From Dipteris shenzhenensis (Eukaryota), in assembly GCA_047967505.1 (NCBI GenBank), contig CM106538.1: a DNA stretch of 64,000 nucleotides, one strand, 5' to 3'. Shown one piece after another: positions 1-54,660 of this stretch. Every line of letters begins with the position of its first letter. Position 1 is the first letter of the stretch. Position numbers and translations under genes: made by a program. A model generated the notes under the pieces. That model did not search any database and had not been told where the DNA came from. It saw nothing but the letters and a program-made list of their open reading frames with translations.

Positions 1-445
1 ATATCACTAGCAACACTCAGCAAATGGAATGTGTATCAGCTTGATGTCAAGAATGTATTTCTCAATGGTTATCTAGATGAGGAAGTCTACATGAGGTCTA
101 CATGCAACAACCAGTAGGTTATGTTGAACCAGGAAAGGAGAATAAGGTTTTCCACCTCAAGAAAAGTCTCTATGGCTTAAAACAAGCCCCCAAAAGTTGG
201 TACAGTAGAATTGACAAATATTTTGCTGATCTGGGATACATGAAGTCCAATGCAGATCATACTCTCTACTACAAAGTTCAAGGGGAAGACATTACTATTG
301 CACTTTTGTACATAGATGACCTGATTGTGACAGGAAGCAAGGATAGCTTCATCAAAAAATGGAAACAAGACTTATCTACAAAGTTCAACATGAAAGATCT
401 TGGACTTATGCACTATTGTCTTAGAATTGAGTTCTGGAGAGATTC
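1..445 (+). mobile_element. Ty1/Copia reverse transcriptase fragment (degraded)
   Basis: QLDVKNVFLNG at the window start, then ORF 102-494 with LKKSLYGLKQAPKSWY, LYIDDLIVTG and MKDLG motifs. Confidence 0.93.
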
Positions 446-860
446 AGATAGCACATTGATGAGTCAGCTTGTATGCTTTTCTTTCTTCACTTAAGCCAAC
501 CATGATGCATTTTCGTGACTTTGCATCCAATTTTCTTCGATGATCATCATGTACGTGGGCATATGCTATGCAACCAAATATGTGGAGATGCCCAATGTGT
601 GGCTTGTGTCTAGTGAATGCTTCATAGGGATTCATACCCTGTATTAGTTCGATAGGAAGCCGATTAATCAAGTAGTTAGCTATAGCTATTGCTTCTACCC
701 AATACTGATTTGAAAGATGATTTTCACTAAGCATTGCTCCAGCACTGTCTACTAAAGTCTCATTCTTCCTTTTAGCTCGTGCATTCTACTGAGGAGTATC
801 TGCACATGTGAATTGTCTTCGAATGCCGTGATTTTTGCAAAAGTTCATGAATGCTGAAGA
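446..860 (-). mobile_element. Ty1/Copia integrase C-terminal fragment, inverted relative to the RT fragment
   Basis: ORF 444-734: YWVEAIAIANYLINRLP...HLHIFGCIAYAHV...KLDAKSRKCIMVG. Confidence 0.9.
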
Positions 861-939
861 CTTGACGTGGCAGTCGGTGATGATGTGGCAGATAGGATTG
901 ACACGTGGCAATTTTGAGACGCTTATCTACCACATGGCA

Positions 940-1375
940 CTATGCAGGGCATGTGCATAGTAGGAGATCCACTTCTGGTTATGTGTTCACCTTTGCAAGT
1001 GGTGCAGTGTCGTGGATGTCTTGCACACAGAAGTGTGTTGCTTTGTCTACCACAGAGGCTGAGTATGTTGCAGCCACAGAGGGTTGCAAGGAGGCTATAT
1101 GGCTTGATTGGCTAGTGGGGGATTTGGGAATTCATATAGGTGTAGCAGCATTGCATAGTGATTCCATGAGTGCTATTCAGCTAGCACGGAATCCAGTCTT
1201 TCATGCAAAGACCAAACACATTGAGGTCAGGTACCATTTCATCAGGGAGGTACTTGAGGACAAGCGCATAGAGCTTGTCAAGGTTTATACAGATGATAAC
1301 CCTACAGATATGCTGACGAAGAGTCTACCTAGTCAACGGTTTGAGTATTGTCATGCATTGATGGGCATTGGATAG
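940..1375 (+). mobile_element. Copia RNase H (end of pol)
   Basis: RRSTSGYVF, SWMSCTQKCVALSTTEAEYVA, NPVFHAKTKHIEVRYHFIRE, stop at 1375. Confidence 0.93.
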
Positions 1376-3020: not shown

Positions 3021-3960
3021 CGTTGTGAAGATAGTGGGACAGAAGGAAGGATTCTCACTTGCGGCTTTCTCACATACACAATGGGGGAATACACACAAAG
3101 GTGGAGGCTGAAAAATAGTTTTCCTCTTCTTAGTTGTGAAAGCCAAAGAAACTCTAGTACAAAGAAATAGAAGAACCCTATATGCGGGTCTCAAACCAAA
3201 CTCAGCTAACTAAGGTGGCATACTAGCTTAGCCATGAACTAGAGTACATAAGGATAGCTGTCATCCAGCTATTATTCATGGGCAATGTACCAACCGCATC
3301 TGCAGCTAACAAGTCGGTGACATAAATGCACAATGGTCACCTTGGCATATCACGAGTGGAACTCGATACCTCAACACTCCCCCTCGAGCTCAATCCCAAT
3401 TCCTGCACACCAAGCAGGTCTCTAAACTTGCGCAGCTTCTCTGCGCCCAATGCCTTCATGCATATGTCAGCTACCTGATCCTCTGTGCTAACATAAACTA
3501 GATCAATAAGACCTAGTAAAACCTTCTCCCACACATAGTGATAATGTACCTCAATGTGCTTTGTTCTAGCATGATAGACTGGTTTATTTGCCAAGTGTAT
3601 ACTACTCATGTTGTCACAATAAATGACAATTGGCCCATCTATAGATTGATGCATATCATAAAGTAGCTTATGCAACAAAGCTACCTCACATGTAGCCATT
3701 GTTGCACCCCTATACTCAGCCTCTGTGCTTGACAAGGCAACTGTAGGCTATTTCTTGATGCTCCAAGCGACTGCAACACTCCCAAAAGAGAACACATATC
3801 CACTGGTAGATCATCTATCTGAAATACTACCAGCCCAATCAGCATCAGTGTATCCATGCAACTGTATCTGAACCCCAGCCTCATAAAATAGTCCATACTG
3901 CAATGTGGACTTCACATACTTAAGTATGCGTCTAGCCGCATCCAAATGCGGTTTCCTTGG
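3021..3960 (-). mobile_element. 3' part of another Copia element: RT end and RNase H (3377-3960), PPT, 3' LTR (3021-3376)
   Basis: ORF 3337-3735 SSTEAEYR...PVYHARTKHIEVHYHY; PPT GAGGGGGAG then TGTTGA; LTR homologous to 7029-7389. Confidence 0.88.
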
Positions 3961-4198: not shown

Positions 4199-5924
4199 TT
4201 CTCATACTTTGTATACTCTTTGGAAGAAGAACTTTGGATATGTTAAAATCCCAAGGAGGCAAAAAATGTCAAAGTGCAATGTCTGTGATGATTTAAAGTG
4301 AGCGATTGAGAGTGTAACATGTCCAAATCAAAGGGAATTATACAAAAAAAACCGAAAATCTCATCATGACCTTATTCGACATTTCAGACAAAAATATGCA
4401 TCTTGGAAGGAGCAAGCTATTTCGCATCCCGATGACTACATGTGCCTTATTGTAGATGGCATGGATCAGAATACAACAACATTGCCTCGTTTTGTTGCCA
4501 CTCCACCTAGATTACAAGGAAAGCACTTTCTAAAGACACATCTATGTGGAGTGTTAGTGCATGGAATTAAGTTCTTTGCAAATATATGGATTGATTTCTT
4601 GCATCTACATGATAGCAATCAAGTTGTAGCATCTATTATGAAGGCAATTTGCAATATACATGCAGAAAAAGGTCGCCTACCACTGACTTTGAGAATACAA
4701 GCTGATAATTGTTGGCGAGAAAATAAGAATGTACTCATGTATGCATTCTACTCCATGCTAGTTGCTCATCGAATCTTCAATGAGGTCGAATGTGGATTTT
4801 TGTATGTTGGGCATACACATGAGGATATCGATCAGGTTTTTAGCATAGTCTCAAGGGAGCTTAAATGCAAGGATGTGGAGACAATAGATGACTTGGTAAG
4901 AAGATGTGGCAGGCAAGTTGGTGGTCATAAGGAAAGTACAATATGTGAGAGGCTCGAAAGAATGTATGATTGGAAGAGCTTCATTCTACCTTTCATACAA
5001 ACGAGTGAAGATGCATTGACAGGTCATACCAATCCACACTACTTTCGTTTTTTTTTTAAAGATGAAAAACCTGTAATGCAATGGCAACAGTATTCTCATG
5101 ATACACAATGGGAACCTGAAGAACCTTACAGTTTCTTAACTTTAATTCCCAGCAAGGAAAGGTATCCAACATGGGCTCCTATACAAGAATTCAATGAGAG
5201 GTCTAACTGTGAAATAGAAGGATTAAAAGCATTTATTACATACAAAGAGGAAATGCTCCAGAGATATCCTGATTCGAAGCCTACTTGGAGAGAACACACT
5301 ACCACTGGAATTAACAAGACACGAAATTTAATAAAGGACCTTGAGAGAATGCAAGGCTCAAAGGATGTCAAGGAAGAATGCAATATGTTTTGGCCAAATG
5401 TTCATAACGATTTGCGCCCAACTCCAGTCTTTGAAAATGAATTTGTATCATTACTCCCATGTCCATATTGTGGACCAAAGAAGAGAGAGTTTATGCCACA
5501 AGTAGATATAGAGGTCGATTGTTTTGTTGTGGTTCGGCCATCAGATGATGAATATGAGAATGTGAAGTTTTGGGTTGCAAAAGTAGTTGATGTGCAAAGA
5601 GATGACCAAGGGAGAGCTACAACATTTATAGCGGTATGGTATGAGCCAAAGGCCAGGAAGGAAAATATGGATAATAACACATTGTATACTAATTGTATAA
5701 TGAAGGAATGGGTCCCAAATGATGAAGCGGTCTCTCAAGTTTCAACGGAGACAATCATAGTGTCTTGGCATTCAAGGGCAAAGAAATCAAAGAAGCGCAT
5801 GGGATATGAGGTAGAAGGAAAAATAAAAATACCACATCAAACTATTTTGCATATACACGAATTTTTAAGGATGCTCGCCATGGAGGAAGTAGAAGGAGAC
5901 AGCGCAAATGAAGAATGTCCATGA
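4199..5924 (+). pseudogene. Sola-like (DDD-type) DNA transposase, catalytic and C-terminal half, 5'-truncated
   Basis: The frame extends upstream of ORF 4440 (LYTLWKKNFGYVKIP...SKCNVC, one stop). Motifs: LIVDGMDQ, RIQADNCWRENKN, GFLYVGHTHEDIDQVFS. Superfamily assignment is from motif recall. Confidence 0.75.
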
Positions 5925-15765: not shown

Positions 15766-15997
15766 TACATTAGGGAGTTTCTTGTACAACTCGTGCCAGA
15801 CATGCCTCGATAGAACGCAATACCCTAGATTCTGTCCTTTAGAAGGCAATACCCTAGAGTCTGTCCTTTGCCGACCGTCCAGAGAAAGCCCAAATGGATG
15901 CCACGTGGAGCCCACATGGAAGCGTTTCTCCAAGCACGAGGACTAGTCTTACAAAATCTACTCTGTCGTGTGTGTGTGTGTTTTTTTTTTCCTCACC

Positions 15998-17629
15998 ATG
16001 GCTAAAGCTTGCAAAACCATGTGCTGCTGCTGCAAATGCATCCTCTCGTCGTCTCACGACCCCAGCTTCACCCAATGGCTCAAATCTCTGAGACGACGCA
16101 TCCACGAGCACCCCGAGCTCAAATTCCAAGAGTTCGACACCAGCGCCTTGATCAGATCAGAGCTGGATCAACTCCAAGTCGCCTACCGATCTCCCTTTGC
16201 TGAGACTGGAGTGGTAGCGAGCATAGGCACCGGGCATCCCCCCTTCGTTGCACTCCGAGCGGATATGGATGCCTTAGCGTTGCAGGTCAGGATTTTTCTC
16301 CGAATCCATGAGGTCAGATCAATTGAATGCTTCTTCGCTAAGCTTGCAGGGCTTTTGCCATTTAGCAGGAGCTTGTGGAATGGGAGCACAAGAGCAAACG
16401 GGATGGAAAGATGCACGCCTGCGGCCATGACGCGCATGTGGCAATGCTGCTGGGAGCAGCGAAACTGTTACAGGACCGGGCGCATCTCTTAAAGGTGTGT
16501 GTGGAGTTCTGAGCCGTCGATGTGCTGGCGGATTAGAAAGGAGAGTGTGAAAGAATTTTGGGAAGAAGATAATGTTCGCAAGAAATCTTCTGCTTAACCG
16601 ATTTAATTGTGCTTTCTTGATAAGGCAGGGAACGGTGCTGCTTCTATTTCAGCCGGCAGAGGAGGGAGGTGCGGGAGCGAAACGAATGGTGGAGGAAGGC
16701 GCACTGGGCAACGCGGAGGCGATCTTCGCACTGCATGTCACGCATGACCTGCCGGCGGGAAAATGGGCCTCCAAGCCAGCACACATGTTAGCAGGCGGTG
16801 GCAAGTTCGAAGCAACAATCGAAGGCAGAGGTGGGCATGCAGGTATTCCACACAAGGCAATAGATCCCATCGTTGCTGCAGCATCCGTCATCTCCAGCTT
16901 GCAGACCATCATCTCCAGGGAAGCCGACCCGCTCGACGGTCAGGTTTGCTCTCTCGCACCGATGCAAACATTTCTTGCAAAACAGGCGTATCCACATTCG
17001 CTTGTTTCAAGTTCACAATCGTTTCTGTGGCGGACAGGTGATTTCGGTGTGCTACATCAAGGGGGGTGAGGCTTACAACGTGCTGCCAAGTTCCGTAGTC
17101 TTGGGAGGAACTTATCGAGTGATGGAAAATCAAAATCTAATCAAGCTGAAGGACAGAATCGGAGAGGTAACTCACTGTGTAGGACATATATATAGACTGT
17201 CAGCTGCCATATGCTGGCACCTTTCTCATCTAAAGTTGCAATTCGCAGGTCATCAGAGCGCAAGCTGCAGTACATGGGTGCAAAGCTATGGTAGATTTTG
17301 ACGAGCAGAACCGGCCGGTATATCCTGCTCTGCTAAACGACGAGAAATCGTATGAATTTGCCCGAAAAGTAGCCATTGATCTTCTAGGTGAGAGCAATGT
17401 GATCCGTATACCTACGCCGGCGATGGCTTCTGAAGATTTTCCATTCTACCTAGAGAAAGTGCCAGGTGCGTTTGCCGTAGTAGGATGTGCACCGGCAGCC
17501 GCCAACGGGAAAGCGCACTGCGTGCACTCTCCGTATTTTGTTCTGGATGAGGATGTGCTGCCAGTGGGCGCAGCTCTTCACACCGCTACAGCAGAACGGT
17601 ACCTTGCTGAACATCACCCTATCCATTAG
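15998..17629 (+). CDS. IAA-amino acid hydrolase ILR1-like (M20 amidohydrolase, ILR1/ILL/IAR3 family), 412 aa; exons 15998-16285, 16369-16494, 16629-16943, 17038-17166, 17249-17629
   Basis: [54 protein letters not shown] and HSPYF motifs; four GT-AG phase-0 introns; the spliced frame is uninterrupted. Confidence 0.96.
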
Positions 17630-18537: not shown

Positions 18538-19977
18538 ATGATAACTACGATGCGGAGGAGTTTGTGCCCAGCACTCAGGGGACTGAAGACATGGACACCT
18601 TGCATGAGGAGGACAGCGCCAGTCGATTCATCCTCCTCTCGCCATGAATTAATCGGAGGGCATGACCCTGTACAGCTTAGAGGAGGCTATGAAGTTCGTG
18701 GAGGGTTGGATAGCTATCGTGGAGGTGCAGCAGCAATAGCGATGGGCACTGTCCTCGCAAGTGCATCTTTCATCCTCCCTTTACCACCTGGCGATTGGAC
18801 GTATCAAGCACATCCAAAACCCAACCTGTATCGTCCTCCTGCTCCTGCCCTTCTGTGTACTCCCAACGCTCCTTCTAGCCTTCTTCCTCTCAACACTCTC
18901 TCTGGCCGCCCTCCATCCTGTCCTGCGAAGCTAGCCTATGTGACACCTTCCAGCCGCCCCCCTCCCCTCTTGCCTGCTCGAGCTACTCTCCCCTCTTCCA
19001 TGCCCAGACTCATCTCCTCTGATGAGTCACAAGGCACGCAGATCACTCAGGCTACACCTGCAAAAGGAGGAGCACAAGGACAACAGAACTGGCGGGTTCA
19101 AGATGTGCTCATCCTCATAGAGAAGAAAAAGGAGATGGAGATTGAATGTCACGAGGGTGGAATTTGTGCTTGCATGAAGGATCGATGGCACTACATTTCG
19201 GAGCTTTGCATTGCAGCGAGAGTGCAACGTTCGAAGATGCAATGCAAGTCCAAATGGGGGAAATTGAATGGTGTCTTTTATCGCATCTACGACTATGAAC
19301 AGAACATACCATCCGGACGCTCTAGTTACTGGAACATGACAGCTGAGGAGAGGAGGGTCGCTTGCCTCCCTATGGATGACTTGCCCGAAGAGGTTTACAA
19401 GAAGCTCGTCTCTTTCTTTGGTGGAGACCAAGATGTTAATCTTGGTCTTATCCTCTTTCACTCGGGTTCTAAGGAAGGCGCCCCGCATGGTGGTGATTAT
19501 GAATAATCTATATGCACATCTTGCTTTGCATCTCTTGAACTTCTTCCTCTCATTGTTGAACAAAGCTTTCTAACTTCATTGTTGCATCCTTCATTGTTTT
19601 GTAGATGAATCAAGCCCTTCCACTCCAATCTTTAGCAACAGCCAGTCCGCACGGGAGGGAGATGAAGATGCTGACTCGGGAGGAGTACGATGCAAGAAGG
19701 CCAAGCGCATTGCTGTCAATCTGAAGGAGTTGGTGGACACGGCCAAGAACATGGTGGACATGCTGGAGAAATGCGAGCTAGGAGCACTCGCTTCATTGAT
19801 GCTGAGACTAGCAAGGACAACCGCTACGCTGCGACATGGCTATAGAAGATGGAGGCCATAGAGGCCCAACGTTTGCAAGTTCAATGGGAGAGCACTCAAG
19901 CTGTGTGCGGAGTTTTGAATAGGATCTCCAACTCTATTGGTGCTTTCCTACTTCGAGGGAAAGATGGGAACATATAG
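18538..19977 (+). pseudogene. Myb/SANT-like (trihelix GT-type) DNA-binding protein, probably disrupted
   Basis: NWRVQDVLILIEKK...RWHYIS...RSKMQCKSKWGKL...IYDYE...SYWNMTAEERR..LP; a second exon from ~19605 has a frameshift and a stop; start uncertain. Confidence 0.75.
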
Positions 19978-50050: not shown

Positions 50051-53000
50051 ATGGCTTCGAGTTTTAGTTCCAAGATGTCTTTCAAATATCTTGAACATGA
50101 TTGGTATTTTATGGAGCGCAAATCAAAGTATTTTTTGGTGATCACTGCCGAGACACTGCCGAGAATGTGTCAAGCGTGAAATATTCTCCAGAGGTAGTAA
50201 GAAATCGTGGCATGGTCTCAACCATCAACATTAAAGAAAACAATTTGATAGAAGTTGTGTGCAAAGGGAAGAATGACGATGTGGTCTACAAGTTACGAGT
50301 CACGCACAAGCACTTCTTGAAGCCCTTACCAGATTCAATTGAGGGATCCCAAGAATTACTTAGTGCCTTAGAAGCATTGAAGAAAATGTGGAATGCATTT
50401 CCAAGTGGTGGTGTTGTACCTTCAGCAACAGTAAGTATGCCATCTATAACATGTAACCCTCAAGTTGTACCACCAATATCTGTGGCGATAACTACGGTAT
50501 CTCCGGCAAGAGTAACTACAATATCTACAGTAGTAACTACAGTATCTCCAACTGTACCTACACCATTGACTGCTGCAACTACAGGAACAAGGAGTGATCG
50601 TGGAGCAGATTCAAGTTCCACAACTATTCCCAGAAAGAGAGCAAAAATAACTCCTACTCCACGTGCAGATTGTTCAAGTGCAGGTTATTTAAAACCAGGC
50701 GAAAAATTGGATAGTGATGATCAGAAGGATCCGTAAGAAGAAGATACAAGTCTCGCAGACTTTTCTATAAGTGTGGCAGACTTACATCTGGAGGATGAGG
50801 GGTACATTTGGGGATTTTCACAATTCAGCATGGCCACAATGCTTATTGATCGAGCTTCGTTGTTCACAAATCAAAGAAAGCTAGATAAGACATTTGCACG
50901 CAAATTGTATGAAGATACGAGGAAAACAAGAACTCCAGTTGCCACTAATATCACTCTTCATCCTATGGCATTTAAGAGACTTCAAGAAGATGATCCTACA
51001 TTGCTTGATGTCACATTTCAAAAGCGCGTGGACTTTCTTAATGCTTTTGAGAACTTTAGAAGGAGTGACTTTGTTCGTGGAGAGTCTTTGTACCAAAGTC
51101 GATATGGGACTGACATCGAGAAGAGATACATGCTCGCAAAGAATAGATTCTTGGAAAGATGCAGGTTTGAGCCCATTGATGGGCAACACTTTTGTGAAGC
51201 TTGCAGGATCGCCCTTGATGAGGGAAGAAAAGGAAACTTGCCGCAGATTGAGTGGATGGAAAAGTTTCAATAGGTCATTTGTCATGTATGCATATTTAAC
51301 GATGACTCGAAGTACATTCTAGAATCAGAAAGGCTGAATTTTGCTCCATTTAGGTTGAAAAAAAGCTCTTCTCTTTCTGAGATCCTGATAAGGGCAAGGG
51401 AGTTATGGGTGGGCTATGGAAAGCCACAAACAGTGAAGGGCAAGAGACCTACATCTGAGTACTTGGCAAAGAGGACTCGATTCTATAGATGCTTGAAAGG
51501 TGTTGTAAGCAATATGCAAGGCATACCAAGTAATAAGGTTGAGGCAAAGGATCTAAACACTGCCGTTGCAAGATACAGGGATATTACTTGCATTGTCTTC
51601 CACAAGGACTCTGTGTTTCAGAGCATGGTGGATGTTTGCCAAGCATATGAAACAGGAAAGATAAAGATATCCTTTGAGGCACCAGAGCACACTGCAACTC
51701 AGAGGAAAGAAATAATGAAACCGATGTCTATTGTTTAGTGGAGAGCATTAAGGTTTGTTCCAGATGCAATAACAGAAGAAGTATGTAAGAAGATCCTAAG
51801 CGGTGACTGCTTCTTTGGAAAGAAGAGCAAGCATAGCAACTTGGATGAAGTGGTCACCCGAATGATTCAAAGTGAGGCTGCTCTCTCGGCACTATTGTTT
51901 TATTGAAATCTGATGATGAGTTAGCTGGCAAGTCAATTAATGTGGATAAGAAGAAAGCACTTAGCCTAGGTCAACTCCTTGATAAGACATGGGCTAGAAA
52001 GTGGTTGGCTTCAATGGATGCAGATACCACACCAACAAAGGATCTAAGAGCTAAAATGCCAAAGATTGTTGAGACAGAATATATGGACATCAAGAAAAAG
52101 GCCTTGCAGTCCACTGCCCAAGGTAGAGCAATTGGTGGTTTAGATGACGGTTCTCCATTCAGCTTCTCCTATGATATCTTGCTATCAGATAATGATACAA
52201 ATTTTGCACACGTCAATGGCATTGATACATAGCATTTCATAACAATGAGCGGTCATGCTTGGGAGAAGCCATGTGTATTTTTCATAGATGAATTGCAAGA
52301 CCTTGCAGTGTCACAAATAGTTGAACTTGTGCGGTTTATCATAGAAGGTCCTATGGCAGATAAGAAAAGATCAACGTTGGTTCTGTTCATGATAGAATCA
52401 CAAAGGGATGCCTTGTATGCGAGTTTGACATCTGCTTTCAAAAGTATACCATGGTATAGTCCTACACAATCATATGACTATCTTGGAAGGCATTGCCATT
52501 CAAGTCTTGTAACCTTTCTTGATGTGCTTCTTATCCAAGGGTGGTGGCAATCTAATCAAAATTCCTTTAAGGACTCTCGAGCTTCATTACTTTGAGGACA
52601 ATAAGGTTAAACTTGATGCAGCAATGGTGGATTACAGAAAGCCGATGGATCCTGATGTGATACTAGAGATGACAAAGAATTTACTGAATGATGGGTGGGA
52701 AGTAGCATTGTATCGAATGGGTTTTGCTGCTAAGAAATTGCTATGCCAAGGTAGAAATGTAAATTTCATTGATACCCCCCATCAGATTGAGTTCTTTGGA
52801 TACATATTACAGTTGCACTACCTTCTTTGAAGAGGAAAATGTTAAAGAAGAGGGTAGTGAGGAAAATGTTGAAGACGAGGGTAGTGAGTTTGAGGGTGAT
52901 GATTCTAGCTCAAGTGATGATGAGGATGAAAGCTCTGCATCCAATGACTTACGCCAAGAAGAAATCCACACAAAGAATAAGGGTGATCAATTGTCAACTA

Positions 53001-53494
53001 GAGTCAAGGAGGTTCCACTCATCATACGGGAAGGCTCGTGGTAGCAAAAAGTAGTAGTACAGCATGTCATAGGAAAAGGTAAGGCTAAAGAGGTGGTAGC
53101 ACTTCCCTTGAAATTAAAAGTGAGGAAGGCACCTTTGATCTTGGGTGAAGGACATGCAAGTGGATCAAGCAAGGAAGCCTTACCCAAAGAAGGTATGGAT
53201 GAGGTAAAGCATGACCAGGAGGAGTTAGCAGGAGGCATAGATGGTTCTTCAACCATAACCTTACAGACTCCAAAGCAGCCTACTAGTCAGAAACCTAGTA
53301 GCCAGGACCCTACTCACCAAGAACTTGGACATGAGACTTTAGAGCAGCCTACTAGTCAGGTGCTTGGAACTGAAGAGCAAACTACTGAGGACCTTGCTAC
53401 TGAGACTCCAGTCTTAGAGCAGCCTATTAGTCAGGACCGTGGTAGTCAAGGGCCTGGCATTGAGGACATTGGTACTGAGGAACATGATTGCTGA
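50051..53494 (+). pseudogene. Large degraded gene (~1100 codons) with a ParB/DGQH-like segment and a possible degenerate methyltransferase-like segment
   Basis: Collinear ORFs 50101, 50773, 51355, 51903, 52245, 52519, 52769 and 53093 separated by single stops or frameshifts; NQRKLD...EPIDGQH; acidic C-terminus. Confidence 0.7.
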
Positions 53495-54179
53495 CGGCTT
53501 TGTAATCACAAGTTTTGAACTTTTGTGTAAAGCGAATATCTAATAAAAAGTTAACTACTTTTTTGATTTCTTTACTCTCATTATTGTGTATAAAGATTGT
53601 TTATGAGGTCCATTTTATACTTAATGGTGTATTTTAAACTTTATGTCAATGTATTTTTATAGTTAAGGGTGTTTTTTAATACCAAGTGAGGTGTATATGT
53701 ACATCACTTACACATAAAAGGATCTATGTACACTACCTTTCTAAGGGGTTTATGTACACCACCTTTCTAAAAGAAATGGTCATAAAGGTGTGTGCACACC
53801 ACTTATACATAAAGGTGTTTATTTACACCACCTCTCTAAGAGAATTGGTCATCTATTGATGTTCTTAGGTGATAGTAGCTCAATTCATAAGAAGTTATGA
53901 AGATGTTTATGTAGACCACCTCTGTAAGAGATTTGGTTATGCATTGATGTTCTTAGTACTTAATCACCAAATCTTTTGTTTGGAGTTGTCAAATCTAGTT
54001 CAAAAAACAACATTATTTACTAGCATATTCAAAATTTTTGGACTGTTTTTTAGTCCATTTCTCAAATTGGACTTTACACAAGTCCAAAAATTTTGAATAG
54101 TGTGTTATTCTCTATGGGACTGAGGTGGGACTTCATTTGAACTGCACGTGGATGATGAGCTCGAGGTCACTTTGAGTTT

Positions 54180-54660
54180 ATTTGCCGACTCTTAATCTGT
54201 TCAGCATGTCTAGGAAATAGTTTGTGTCTTGCCACATTGGTTGATGTAGTTCATAATATTATATGTCCCTTCATATTACGCGGCATTGTGGAGAAAATCC
54301 AATTGTCTTCTTTTGGCCTTACTTGGCAAAGGTCTACACAAAGAAGAATGTCAACTCCCCCAAAGGGCTGATTGTGGTTGTCTTTAATTTCATGTAGGCA
54401 CATGTCCATTGTGGTGAAATTGTTTTGCCCAATCAAGGAAATTTCCTCCACCACCACCAACTCCAAGTCCCTACATTGGAGTTGCTACAGCTTCTCAATG
54501 GAGAGGGATGGACATTGTGATGTTAGAAGCAATAGGCACAAAGCTGAGTCTATTATTATGCCTCCAATGTTTTATGTTACCTCCAGGTCATTGTTTGCTT
54601 GCATGTAGCCATTTTTGGTTAGGTTCAAGGAATTTTCTATATATAGGTATCTTGCATGAC
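54180..54660 (-). pseudogene. PIF1-family helicase fragment (Helitron-like)
   Basis: VVVEEISLIG, QPFGGVDILLCVDLCQVRP, upstream GGIIIDSAL, downstream FLDMLNRLRVG. Confidence 0.8.

Follow-up and report, generated by a model that had tools for sequence, protein, structure and literature searches.

The stretch of DNA analysed here, a window of 64,000 nucleotides on contig CM106538.1 of the Dipteris shenzhenensis assembly GCA_047967505.1, contains at positions 50051-53494 (+ strand) a full-length but decayed copy of a gene for an accessory protein. This pseudogene has homologues, from which it can be assigned to a real protein family, and it is located inside a mobile element delimited by terminal inverted repeats (TIRs), where it stands head to head with the remnant of a transposase gene. 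We read it, with a probability of about 0.65, as the dead copy of a gene that a cut-and-paste DNA transposon of ~7 kb (47109-54106) carried besides that for its transposase; the product would have contained a domain with a ParB/Srx-type fold. An original prediction made from the nucleotide sequence had described the same locus as an accessory or cargo gene combining a ParB/DGQH-like domain with an eroded DNA methyltransferase domain; the position of the gene agrees with that description, and the two proposed domains fared differently, as set out below.

The transposon

The element is delimited by two TIRs of 23 nucleotides, which are 96% complementary and 6952 nucleotides apart, the left copy (AACACACTATTTAAAATTTTTGG) being located at 47109-47131 on the + strand and the right copy at 54084-54106 on the − strand. 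The tetranucleotide ATTC precedes the left TIR (47105-47108) and follows the right TIR (54107-54110), forming a putative 4-bp target-site duplication; this match was read directly from the sequence, and four matching base pairs are expected by chance approximately once in 256 per offset. The 21-nucleotide core of the TIR has two matches in the window, while none of 100 shuffled sequences contained two. The right TIR is accompanied by an inner inverted copy, the segments 54026-54060 and 54065-54099 forming a 35-nucleotide hairpin with 83% complementarity, and this region (54026-54099) may represent a very small foldback version derived from the element itself.

Subterminal arrays are found towards both ends. 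The left array (47427-47592) consists of three repeats of ~58 nucleotides, each harbouring a 16-bp palindrome of the GGTGTATAGATACACC type (47457-47589), and the right array (53668-53956), with repeats of ~69-88 nucleotides, contains degenerate copies of the palindrome at 53668, 53690, 53745 and 53814 (to 53829). The pattern GGTGTNNNNNNACACC, with at most one mismatch, occurs eight times in the window, against 1.12 expected occurrences, and seven of the eight matches fall within the two subterminal zones (three on the left and four on the right), at similar distances from the ends. The palindromes are candidate protein-binding sites.

The − strand of the element encodes, at 47623-48057, the C-terminal tail, and only this part, of a transposase. 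Its product shares 43% identity over 108 residues (E = 3e-24) with residues 377-479 of the protein encoded by an intact open reading frame (ORF) elsewhere in the window (4440-5924, + strand; 494 residues), which contains the Pfam domain DUF7869 at residues 26-220 (E = 1.9e-51); judging from this similarity, the intact ORF probably represents the type of transposase whose tail survives in the element. No transposase homology was detected by tblastx upstream of the tail within the element, and the low-complexity DNA that separates the two genes (48726-49990; purine-rich at 48726-49509 and A+T-rich at 49507-49990) stands in place of the 5′ part of the transposase gene. The 3′ end of the transposase remnant points towards the left TIR and that of the accessory gene, on the + strand, towards the right TIR, the latter gene occupying the space between the remnant and the right end of the element. 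Neither a ParB-like gene nor a matching TIR was found in the window near the intact ORF, and a literature search returned no paper mentioning DUF7869. Target-site duplications of 4 bp are probably also produced by Sola elements.

Reading frame and decay of the accessory gene

The coding path through 50051-53494 requires approximately four frame changes, near 50150, 51900, 52550 and 52800, and is interrupted by five in-frame stop codons, a TAA at 50734 and TAG codons at 51271, 51736, 52230 and 53042, before reaching a TGA at 53492-53494. The need for frame repair had been recognized in the original prediction, which missed the pseudogene state of the gene as a whole. The strings that it quoted are all present on the + strand at the places given for them: NQRKLD at 50868-50885, IDGQH at 51175-51189, GIDT followed by a TAG and, in the next frame, by CVFFIDEL at ~52218-52300, and RKPMDPDVILEMTKNLLNDGWEVALYRMGFAAKKLLCQGRNVNFID (the RKPMDPDV stretch) within the piece 52513-52827.

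Taken alone, the DGQH motif is weak evidence and compatible with chance: the six frames of the window contain a single instance, and 11 of 100 mononucleotide shuffles contain one or more. It goes beyond chance because homologues exist, as revealed by the HMMER search described below. An intron made up of the TAG at 51271 and the 27 codons after it was considered and dropped, since homologues align through this stretch; the TAG is therefore a stop mutation rather than the edge of an intron. Searches of the window with blastn, tblastx and a hidden Markov model (HMM) found no second copy of the accessory gene, and nothing functional remains of the copy described here.

A family of large proteins

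The translation of 50773-51738, with the internal TAG read through as X, was searched exhaustively with HMMER against 1.84 billion representatives. Twenty proteins were matched at E ≤ 1e-3, seven of them at E ≤ 1e-10 and three at E ≤ 1e-30. The closest relatives are short ORFs with 45-58% identity to the query, and the more distant ones (25-31% identity) include proteins of 1097 and 1488 residues; several relatives align straight over the internal TAG. One more family member, of 1199 residues, was obtained from a cluster look-up, and a search with a family profile, which returned 11 proteins at E ≤ 1e-3, enlarged the family by ten sequences, one of 1271 residues. Intact members of the family span 1097-1488 residues, and most of the database relatives are short, broken ORFs located on small contigs. 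Names were attached to two of the ten clusters looked up, one being a hypothetical protein from the lycophyte Diphasiastrum complanatum, the sole member of the family with a named organism, and the other being labelled merely as 'hypothetical protein'.

Against a family HMM built locally from 18 members, the pieces of the window gene are collinear, with 50101-50733 at HMM positions 55-121 (E = 1.5e-6), 50737-51270 at positions 285-428 (E = 5.5e-17), 51274-51735 at positions 435-573 (E = 1.6e-16) and, weakly, 52513-52827 at positions 907-975 (E = 0.2, or 7e-5 when this piece is scored alone). Two more pieces fall in collinear order at non-significant scores, and the frame-b pieces 51864-52229 and 52233-52595 were given no placement by the family HMM, their family resemblance having been judged by eye.

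From its 5′ end, the pseudogene comprises a start region (50051-50176), read in another frame than the piece that follows and weakly placed at HMM positions 20-33; the N-terminal family domain and a Ser/Thr/Pro/Val-rich linker (50101-50733); the ParB/Srx-like domain (50773-51350); a helical middle region (51351-52232), in which the frame changes near 51900 and which is assigned from the family HMM up to 51735 and from predicted helices, its placement beyond 51738 being weak or by eye; the C-terminal α/β domain, proposed to be methyltransferase-like (52233-52827), which is delineated from the HMM match to 52513-52827 and a low-confidence structural model of a homologue; and a tail (52830-53494) that is first acidic and then Ser/Thr/Gln-rich and contains three repeats of ~69-75 nucleotides (53270-53479). 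The intact relatives display the same succession, in which an N-terminal domain and a linker of low complexity are followed by a domain with moderate support for a ParB/Srx-type fold, a helical middle region, a C-terminal α/β domain and an acidic tail.

The motifs conserved in the ParB/Srx-type domain of the relatives are TN(Q/H)R, LTLRPI, WEPVDGQH..AC and ES.R.N. An F-x-G-x-G loop located ~40-45 residues upstream of DGQH is conserved in non-plant members, including P0011 (at residue 66), P0015 (239), P0027 (392) and P0028 (272), among others, and is absent from the plant-lineage copies, that of the window included.

Searches in other collections were negative. The eight ORF pieces had no match in Pfam apart from unrelated families at E values of 0.017-0.21. 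Word-indexed protein searches found nothing, either for the 166-residue DGQH piece against longer proteins or for 52513-52827 against proteins of similar length. A tblastn search with P0011 against 50,697 phage records found no relatives at E ≤ 10, and none of the eight stretches matching the pattern W[EK]PV[DN]GQH in 185,579 bacterial and archaeal genomes was confirmed as a relative. A mixed alignment of the C-terminal pieces of the window with P0031 and P0034 was discarded as too poor to serve as a query.

Fold of the first segment

The first segment was modelled with AlphaFold2 (AF2) from the 322 residues of the window copy and 32 aligned sequences. The model has a mean predicted local distance difference test (pLDDT) score of 74, with values above 90 over residues 40-170. 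It begins with a strand, a loop containing TNQR (50865-50876), a helix, the strand ITLHPMAF and a helical insert, and continues with a strand ending in FEPID, a helix opened by GQH, the strand VCIF and a helix containing ESERLN, which is the arrangement of ParB/Srx domains. The DGQH site lies where a strand passes into a helix, the position occupied by DGQHR in DndB and by DGQQR in GmrS.

In a Foldseek comparison of this model with the PDB, four ParB/Noc chains (6sdk, 7bm8, 7ol9 and 7bnr) were listed at ranks 3, 4, 5 and 12, with template-modelling (TM) scores of 0.37-0.43 on target length, and three of them have the highest probabilities of the list (0.33, 0.33 and 0.28), at E values of 0.55 or worse. 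In BFVD, a phage protein resembling Spo0J/ParB was the best match (E = 0.011, probability 0.94). Among the 50 BFVD rows listed, 16 are ParB/Spo0J/Srx (eight), GmrSD-N/DUF262 (six) or DndB-like (two) proteins, the remainder being one ambiguous 'chromosome partitioning protein', seven proteins with other names and 26 unnamed proteins. An hhalign comparison of the N-halves of 29 family members with the N-domains of eight plasmid ParB proteins gave a score of 23.8 (P = 0.011), which was reached by none of 30 column shuffles (maximum 13.7) or by the reversed alignment (13.2); the cross-controls scored 17.7 (N-half against methyltransferases) and 15.4 (C-half against ParB), and a single ParB sequence compared with the family profile gave a P value of 0.42.

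The fifth residue of the motif, following DGQH (20 sequences, window included) or DGQY (one sequence), is Ile, Val or Phe in all 21 cases. Upstream, the window copy has TNQR, and the six long members have TNQR (one), TNHR (four) or TNQQ (one); downstream, the Asn of ES.R.N is invariant, and no Phe is found four residues before it.

The AF2 model, Foldseek and hhalign agree on the ParB-like character proposed for this segment, none of them strongly on its own, so that a ParB/Srx-type fold is moderately supported. Membership of the DGQHR family proper is not supported by the sequence, since its HMM (PF14072/TIGR03187) yields no match at E ≤ 10 in the Pfam, NCBIfam and PADLOC scans and the fifth residue is never Arg.

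The C-terminal domain

For the second segment, the original prediction had proposed a Rossmann methyltransferase fold of the β-class, with eroded DPPY and FxGxG motifs. An AF2 model of P0031, a natural fragment covering the C-terminal half, was obtained from 11 aligned sequences and has a mean pLDDT of 52; the Foldseek list for this model, which is not trustworthy at such a pLDDT, contains no methyltransferase and has NatD and EEP nucleases in its top rows, all at E ≥ 0.078. The alternation of strands and helices predicted for this half is compatible with the order in a permuted β-class enzyme.

The C-half was also compared by hhalign with seven PF01555 enzymes (Escherichia coli YhdJ, four phage and two plasmid proteins), five of which were checked and match Pfam at E values of 1e-44 to 1e-64. 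The score of 19.7 (P = 0.067) was equalled or exceeded by one of 25 column shuffles. The best local alignment places the family sequence GRRVVVLESDPDRE on the methyltransferase sequence GRKFIGIEINSEY, in the very register of the original prediction, and the acidic residue at the end of the aligned strand is conserved in all five sequences covering the position; global-mode alignment was uninformative (4.8, with shuffles scoring up to 7.2).

Library and motif searches did not detect the enzyme family, the segment being without hits in Pfam, NCBIfam and PADLOC. PF01555 matched neither the window pieces nor the eight members scanned, at E ≤ 10. The catalytic pattern (D/N/S)PP(Y/F/W/H) is present in none of 35 family sequences, including the six that cover the C-terminal half, and a C-terminal FxGxG is likewise absent from all 35, loops of the F.G.G type being found only in the N-half or in low-complexity tails. 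The candidate motif IV position reads DCRR, DCRT, DYRC or DCRC in the relatives and IDEL in the window, and the candidate FxGxG position reads QGLT, CGMA, VGLT or YNIT. To call the motifs eroded in this copy alone is therefore incorrect, as none of the 35 sequences retains DPPY, NPPY or a C-terminal FxGxG.

Comparison of residues 470-745 of P0011 with the ESM Atlas, a language-model resource with automatic names and a calibration that does not extend to portions of proteins, gave leads only. The best cluster (0.95, 195 of 256 features shared), whose members have no Pfam family in common, bears the automatic name 'Trimethylguanosine synthase (Fragment)', and the cluster at rank 13 (0.88) is named 'SAM-dependent methyltransferase', with PF01555 in 39% of its members. 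None of the comparisons gave significant support to the proposed methyltransferase fold. The C-terminal half may be a module of methyltransferase type that is either highly diverged or without catalytic activity; if it does derive from a methyltransferase, the loss of the motifs would be family-wide and old.

Assessment and alternative explanations

Several observations weigh against the interpretation of the locus as the dead accessory gene of a transposon, encoding a ParB/Srx-type domain. Foldseek returned no match to the first segment at E ≤ 0.001 in either the PDB or BFVD, the models of ParB, DndB/DGQHR and DUF262 in Pfam, NCBIfam and PADLOC matched no family member even at E ≤ 10, and the family profile found no solved relative among the PDB sequences, the best match being an unrelated protein (E = 0.17). 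The Arg of DGQHR is present in none of the 21 sequences with DGQH or DGQY. The register of the hhalign alignment differs from that inferred from the AF2 model, and residue-level equivalences are therefore uncertain. As to the element, the foldback unit of ~80 bp at the right end offers an alternative partner for the right TIR, the surviving transposase tail falls outside the Pfam DUF7869 domain itself, and the association of the gene family with the transposase is based on this single element. Binding of the palindromes and of a nucleotide is purely inferred, by analogy with other proteins.

Among the alternatives, the full combination put forward in the original prediction, a ParB domain joined to a β-class N6-adenine/N4-cytosine (N6A/N4C) methyltransferase fold that lacks DPPY and FxGxG and serves as a non-catalytic module binding DNA or reading methylation, is the one that we take most seriously, while considering it unlikely. 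It draws on the place of the hhalign alignment and its conserved acidic residue, on the higher score of the C-half against methyltransferases (19.7) than against ParB (15.4), on the predicted order of secondary-structure elements and on the two Atlas clusters, as well as on the precedent of a 1104-residue accessory protein with ParB and N4C/N6A methyltransferase domains in an Ectocarpus Sola1 element (PMC12477816). Its difficulties lie in the P value of 0.067, with one shuffle in 25 performing as well, in a model with a pLDDT of 52 that retrieved no methyltransferase, and in the failure of PF01555 and of the catalytic motif to appear anywhere in the family; the only F.G.G-type loops are misplaced, and the names in the Atlas are automatic. 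A second possibility, which we judge to be slightly less likely still, sees in the family a plant and protist equivalent of the fungal DUF3723 proteins, encoded by auxiliary genes of the Starship giant transposons, with a ParB-like module common to unrelated eukaryotic transposons that carry cargo. When residues 1-200 of P0011 were submitted to the ESM Atlas, the clusters at rank 1 (0.95, 185 of 256 features) and rank 3 (0.94, 171 features) contained PF12520 in 31% and 98% of their members, respectively, and nine of the 30 hits belonged to the DUF3723 set; DUF3723 genes are conserved in Starships and unexplained in function (PMC9156397; 10.1101/2025.02.28.640899; PMC13486527). However, scans of family members with PF12520 gave no match at E ≤ 10, and the Atlas provides neither an alignment nor an E value, besides its calibration not covering protein parts. 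A literature search found no paper containing both DUF3723 and ParB.

The locus might instead be an ordinary host gene, or a captured fragment of one, lying between two repeats, its resemblance to ParB being spurious. The gene is present as a single copy in the window, no comparable gene adjoins the intact DUF7869 ORF at 4440-5924, and no structural or profile match is significant individually. Nevertheless, the gene fills the space from the transposase remnant to the right end, with the 3′ ends of both genes directed towards the TIRs; its database relatives, for the most part, come from small contigs as short and interrupted ORFs, as decaying repeats would give; and three independent comparisons (Foldseek with the PDB, Foldseek with BFVD, and hhalign) indicate the same superfamily. 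We therefore regard a host origin as improbable, and retain the accessory gene of a transposon as the best explanation.

Other features of the window

The window is eukaryotic and resembles plant DNA in its contents. Just beyond the right end of the element, 54251-54466 (− strand) encodes a fragment of a PIF1-like helicase (Pfam E = 5.5e-8), probably a Helitron remnant. Six kilobases of purine-rich, low-complexity DNA at 40000-46000 reach a GC skew of 0.80 and an AT skew of 0.62, a strand bias that gives rise to long artefactual Ser/Leu/Pro ORFs on the − strand. Near the start of the window, the ORFs at 102-494 (+), 905-1375 (+) and 3337-3735 (−) comprise a copia-type retrotransposon reverse transcriptase (RVT_2, E = 4.8e-31) and two further ORFs that appear by eye to be RNase H-like, with no Pfam match. 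Exons of a host gene resembling M20 peptidases and indole-3-acetic acid (IAA)-amino-acid hydrolases are found at 15968-17301 (+), with Peptidase_M20 at E = 4.8e-9 on 16572-17069, and an ORF of 322 residues at 18538-19506 (+) matches the Myb/SANT-like DNA-binding domain PF13837 at E = 8.7e-6, narrowly missing the curated cut-off.

Proposed function

By analogy with ParB, GmrS and DndB, the pocket formed by the strand, DGQH and the helix may bind a nucleotide, and the same analogy suggests that the intact accessory protein would load onto the DNA of its own element. The 16-bp palindromes near both ends would be the obvious candidate loading sites, and the loaded protein might aid transposition or shield the element from silencing. 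The window copy, being dead, is without functional effect on the host and is of interest because it points to the family.

Comparison with known systems

Accessory genes with ParB domains, encoded on the strand opposite to the transposase, have been described in algal transposons (PMC12477816; 10.1101/2025.02.11.637652). The Ectocarpus element Sola1-1_Ec32 carries, opposite its transposase, the gene for the 1104-residue ParB and N4C/N6A methyltransferase protein mentioned above, and in the view of its authors proteins of this kind may form a new class of accessory factors (Dinatale et al., 2025; PMC12477816). In the red alga Bostrychia, the Plavaka gene PAG3 encodes a ParB domain together with a 2-oxoglutarate (2OG) oxygenase and lies beside arrays of inverted repeats (Petroll et al., 2025; bioRxiv 10.1101/2025.02.11.637652), and fusions of Dam-type enzymes with a ParB helix-turn-helix region are reported from chlorophytes and chytrids (Iyer et al., 2016; PMC4738411). 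The architecture proposed in the original prediction is thus of a type that has already been published.

The DGQHR motifs of bacterial systems comprise the nearly invariant pentapeptide DGQHR in DndB and DGQQR in GmrS, an upstream QR pair and a downstream FxxxN (PMC4619093). The family described here shares with DGQHR/DndB and DUF262/GmrS the upstream (Q/H)R pair and a D-G-Q-H that ends a strand and opens a helix, and with the DGQHR domain a conserved Asn-containing motif ~45 residues downstream. In contrast to these proteins, it never has the final Arg, is matched by none of their HMMs and contains a helical insert of ~45 residues between the second and third strands, which distinguishes it from DndB and GmrS; the context is also different, a eukaryotic transposon here and phosphorothioation or type IV restriction for DndB and GmrS. 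Likeness to the N-terminal domain of ParB/Spo0J/Noc, which binds cytidine triphosphate, resides in the predicted order of strands and helices, in the top-probability solved structures and in the P value of 0.011. Unlike bacterial ParB, the family has no GxRR box and no recognisable ParB helix-turn-helix was identified, and the TM scores do not exceed 0.43.

Like DUF3723 (PF12520), its nearest language-model neighbour, the family consists of accessory genes of a mobile element; unlike it, the family has no HMM match to PF12520, and the transposition enzyme of Starships is a tyrosine recombinase. A broader idea, which we regard as speculative and doubtful, is that a nucleotide-binding DNA-clamp module of the ParB/DGQH type accompanies, time and again and perhaps by homology, eukaryotic cargo transposons that are not otherwise related, binding subterminal palindromes so as to mark or hold the ends. 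The candidates for such a module would be the land-plant element of DUF7869 type, the algal Sola1 and Plavaka elements and, via DUF3723, the fungal Starships; if true, this would provide a fold and a testable function for the long-unexplained DUF3723.

The closest parallels remain the algal elements, here compared by their published descriptions. As in Sola1 and Plavaka, the protein is large (1104 residues in Ectocarpus and 1097-1488 in the present family), its ParB-like domain is N-terminal and its gene is located between the terminal repeats of a DNA transposon on the strand opposite to the transposase; as with PAG3, the element contains arrays of inverted repeats that are possible binding sites. 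The algal proteins have domains that can be named, a N4C/N6A methyltransferase or a 2OG oxygenase, whereas the present family has no Pfam match and a C-terminal domain with no assigned fold, and its host is a land plant. Transposon proteins that bind, and perhaps modify, the DNA of their own element are a recently noticed class, mainly algal so far. With ParB-domain accessory genes already published for algae, the family to which the Dipteris pseudogene points looks like a divergent land-plant variant, which would extend the class into land plants and offer a test system in the candidate 16-bp palindrome and the conserved DGQH pocket.

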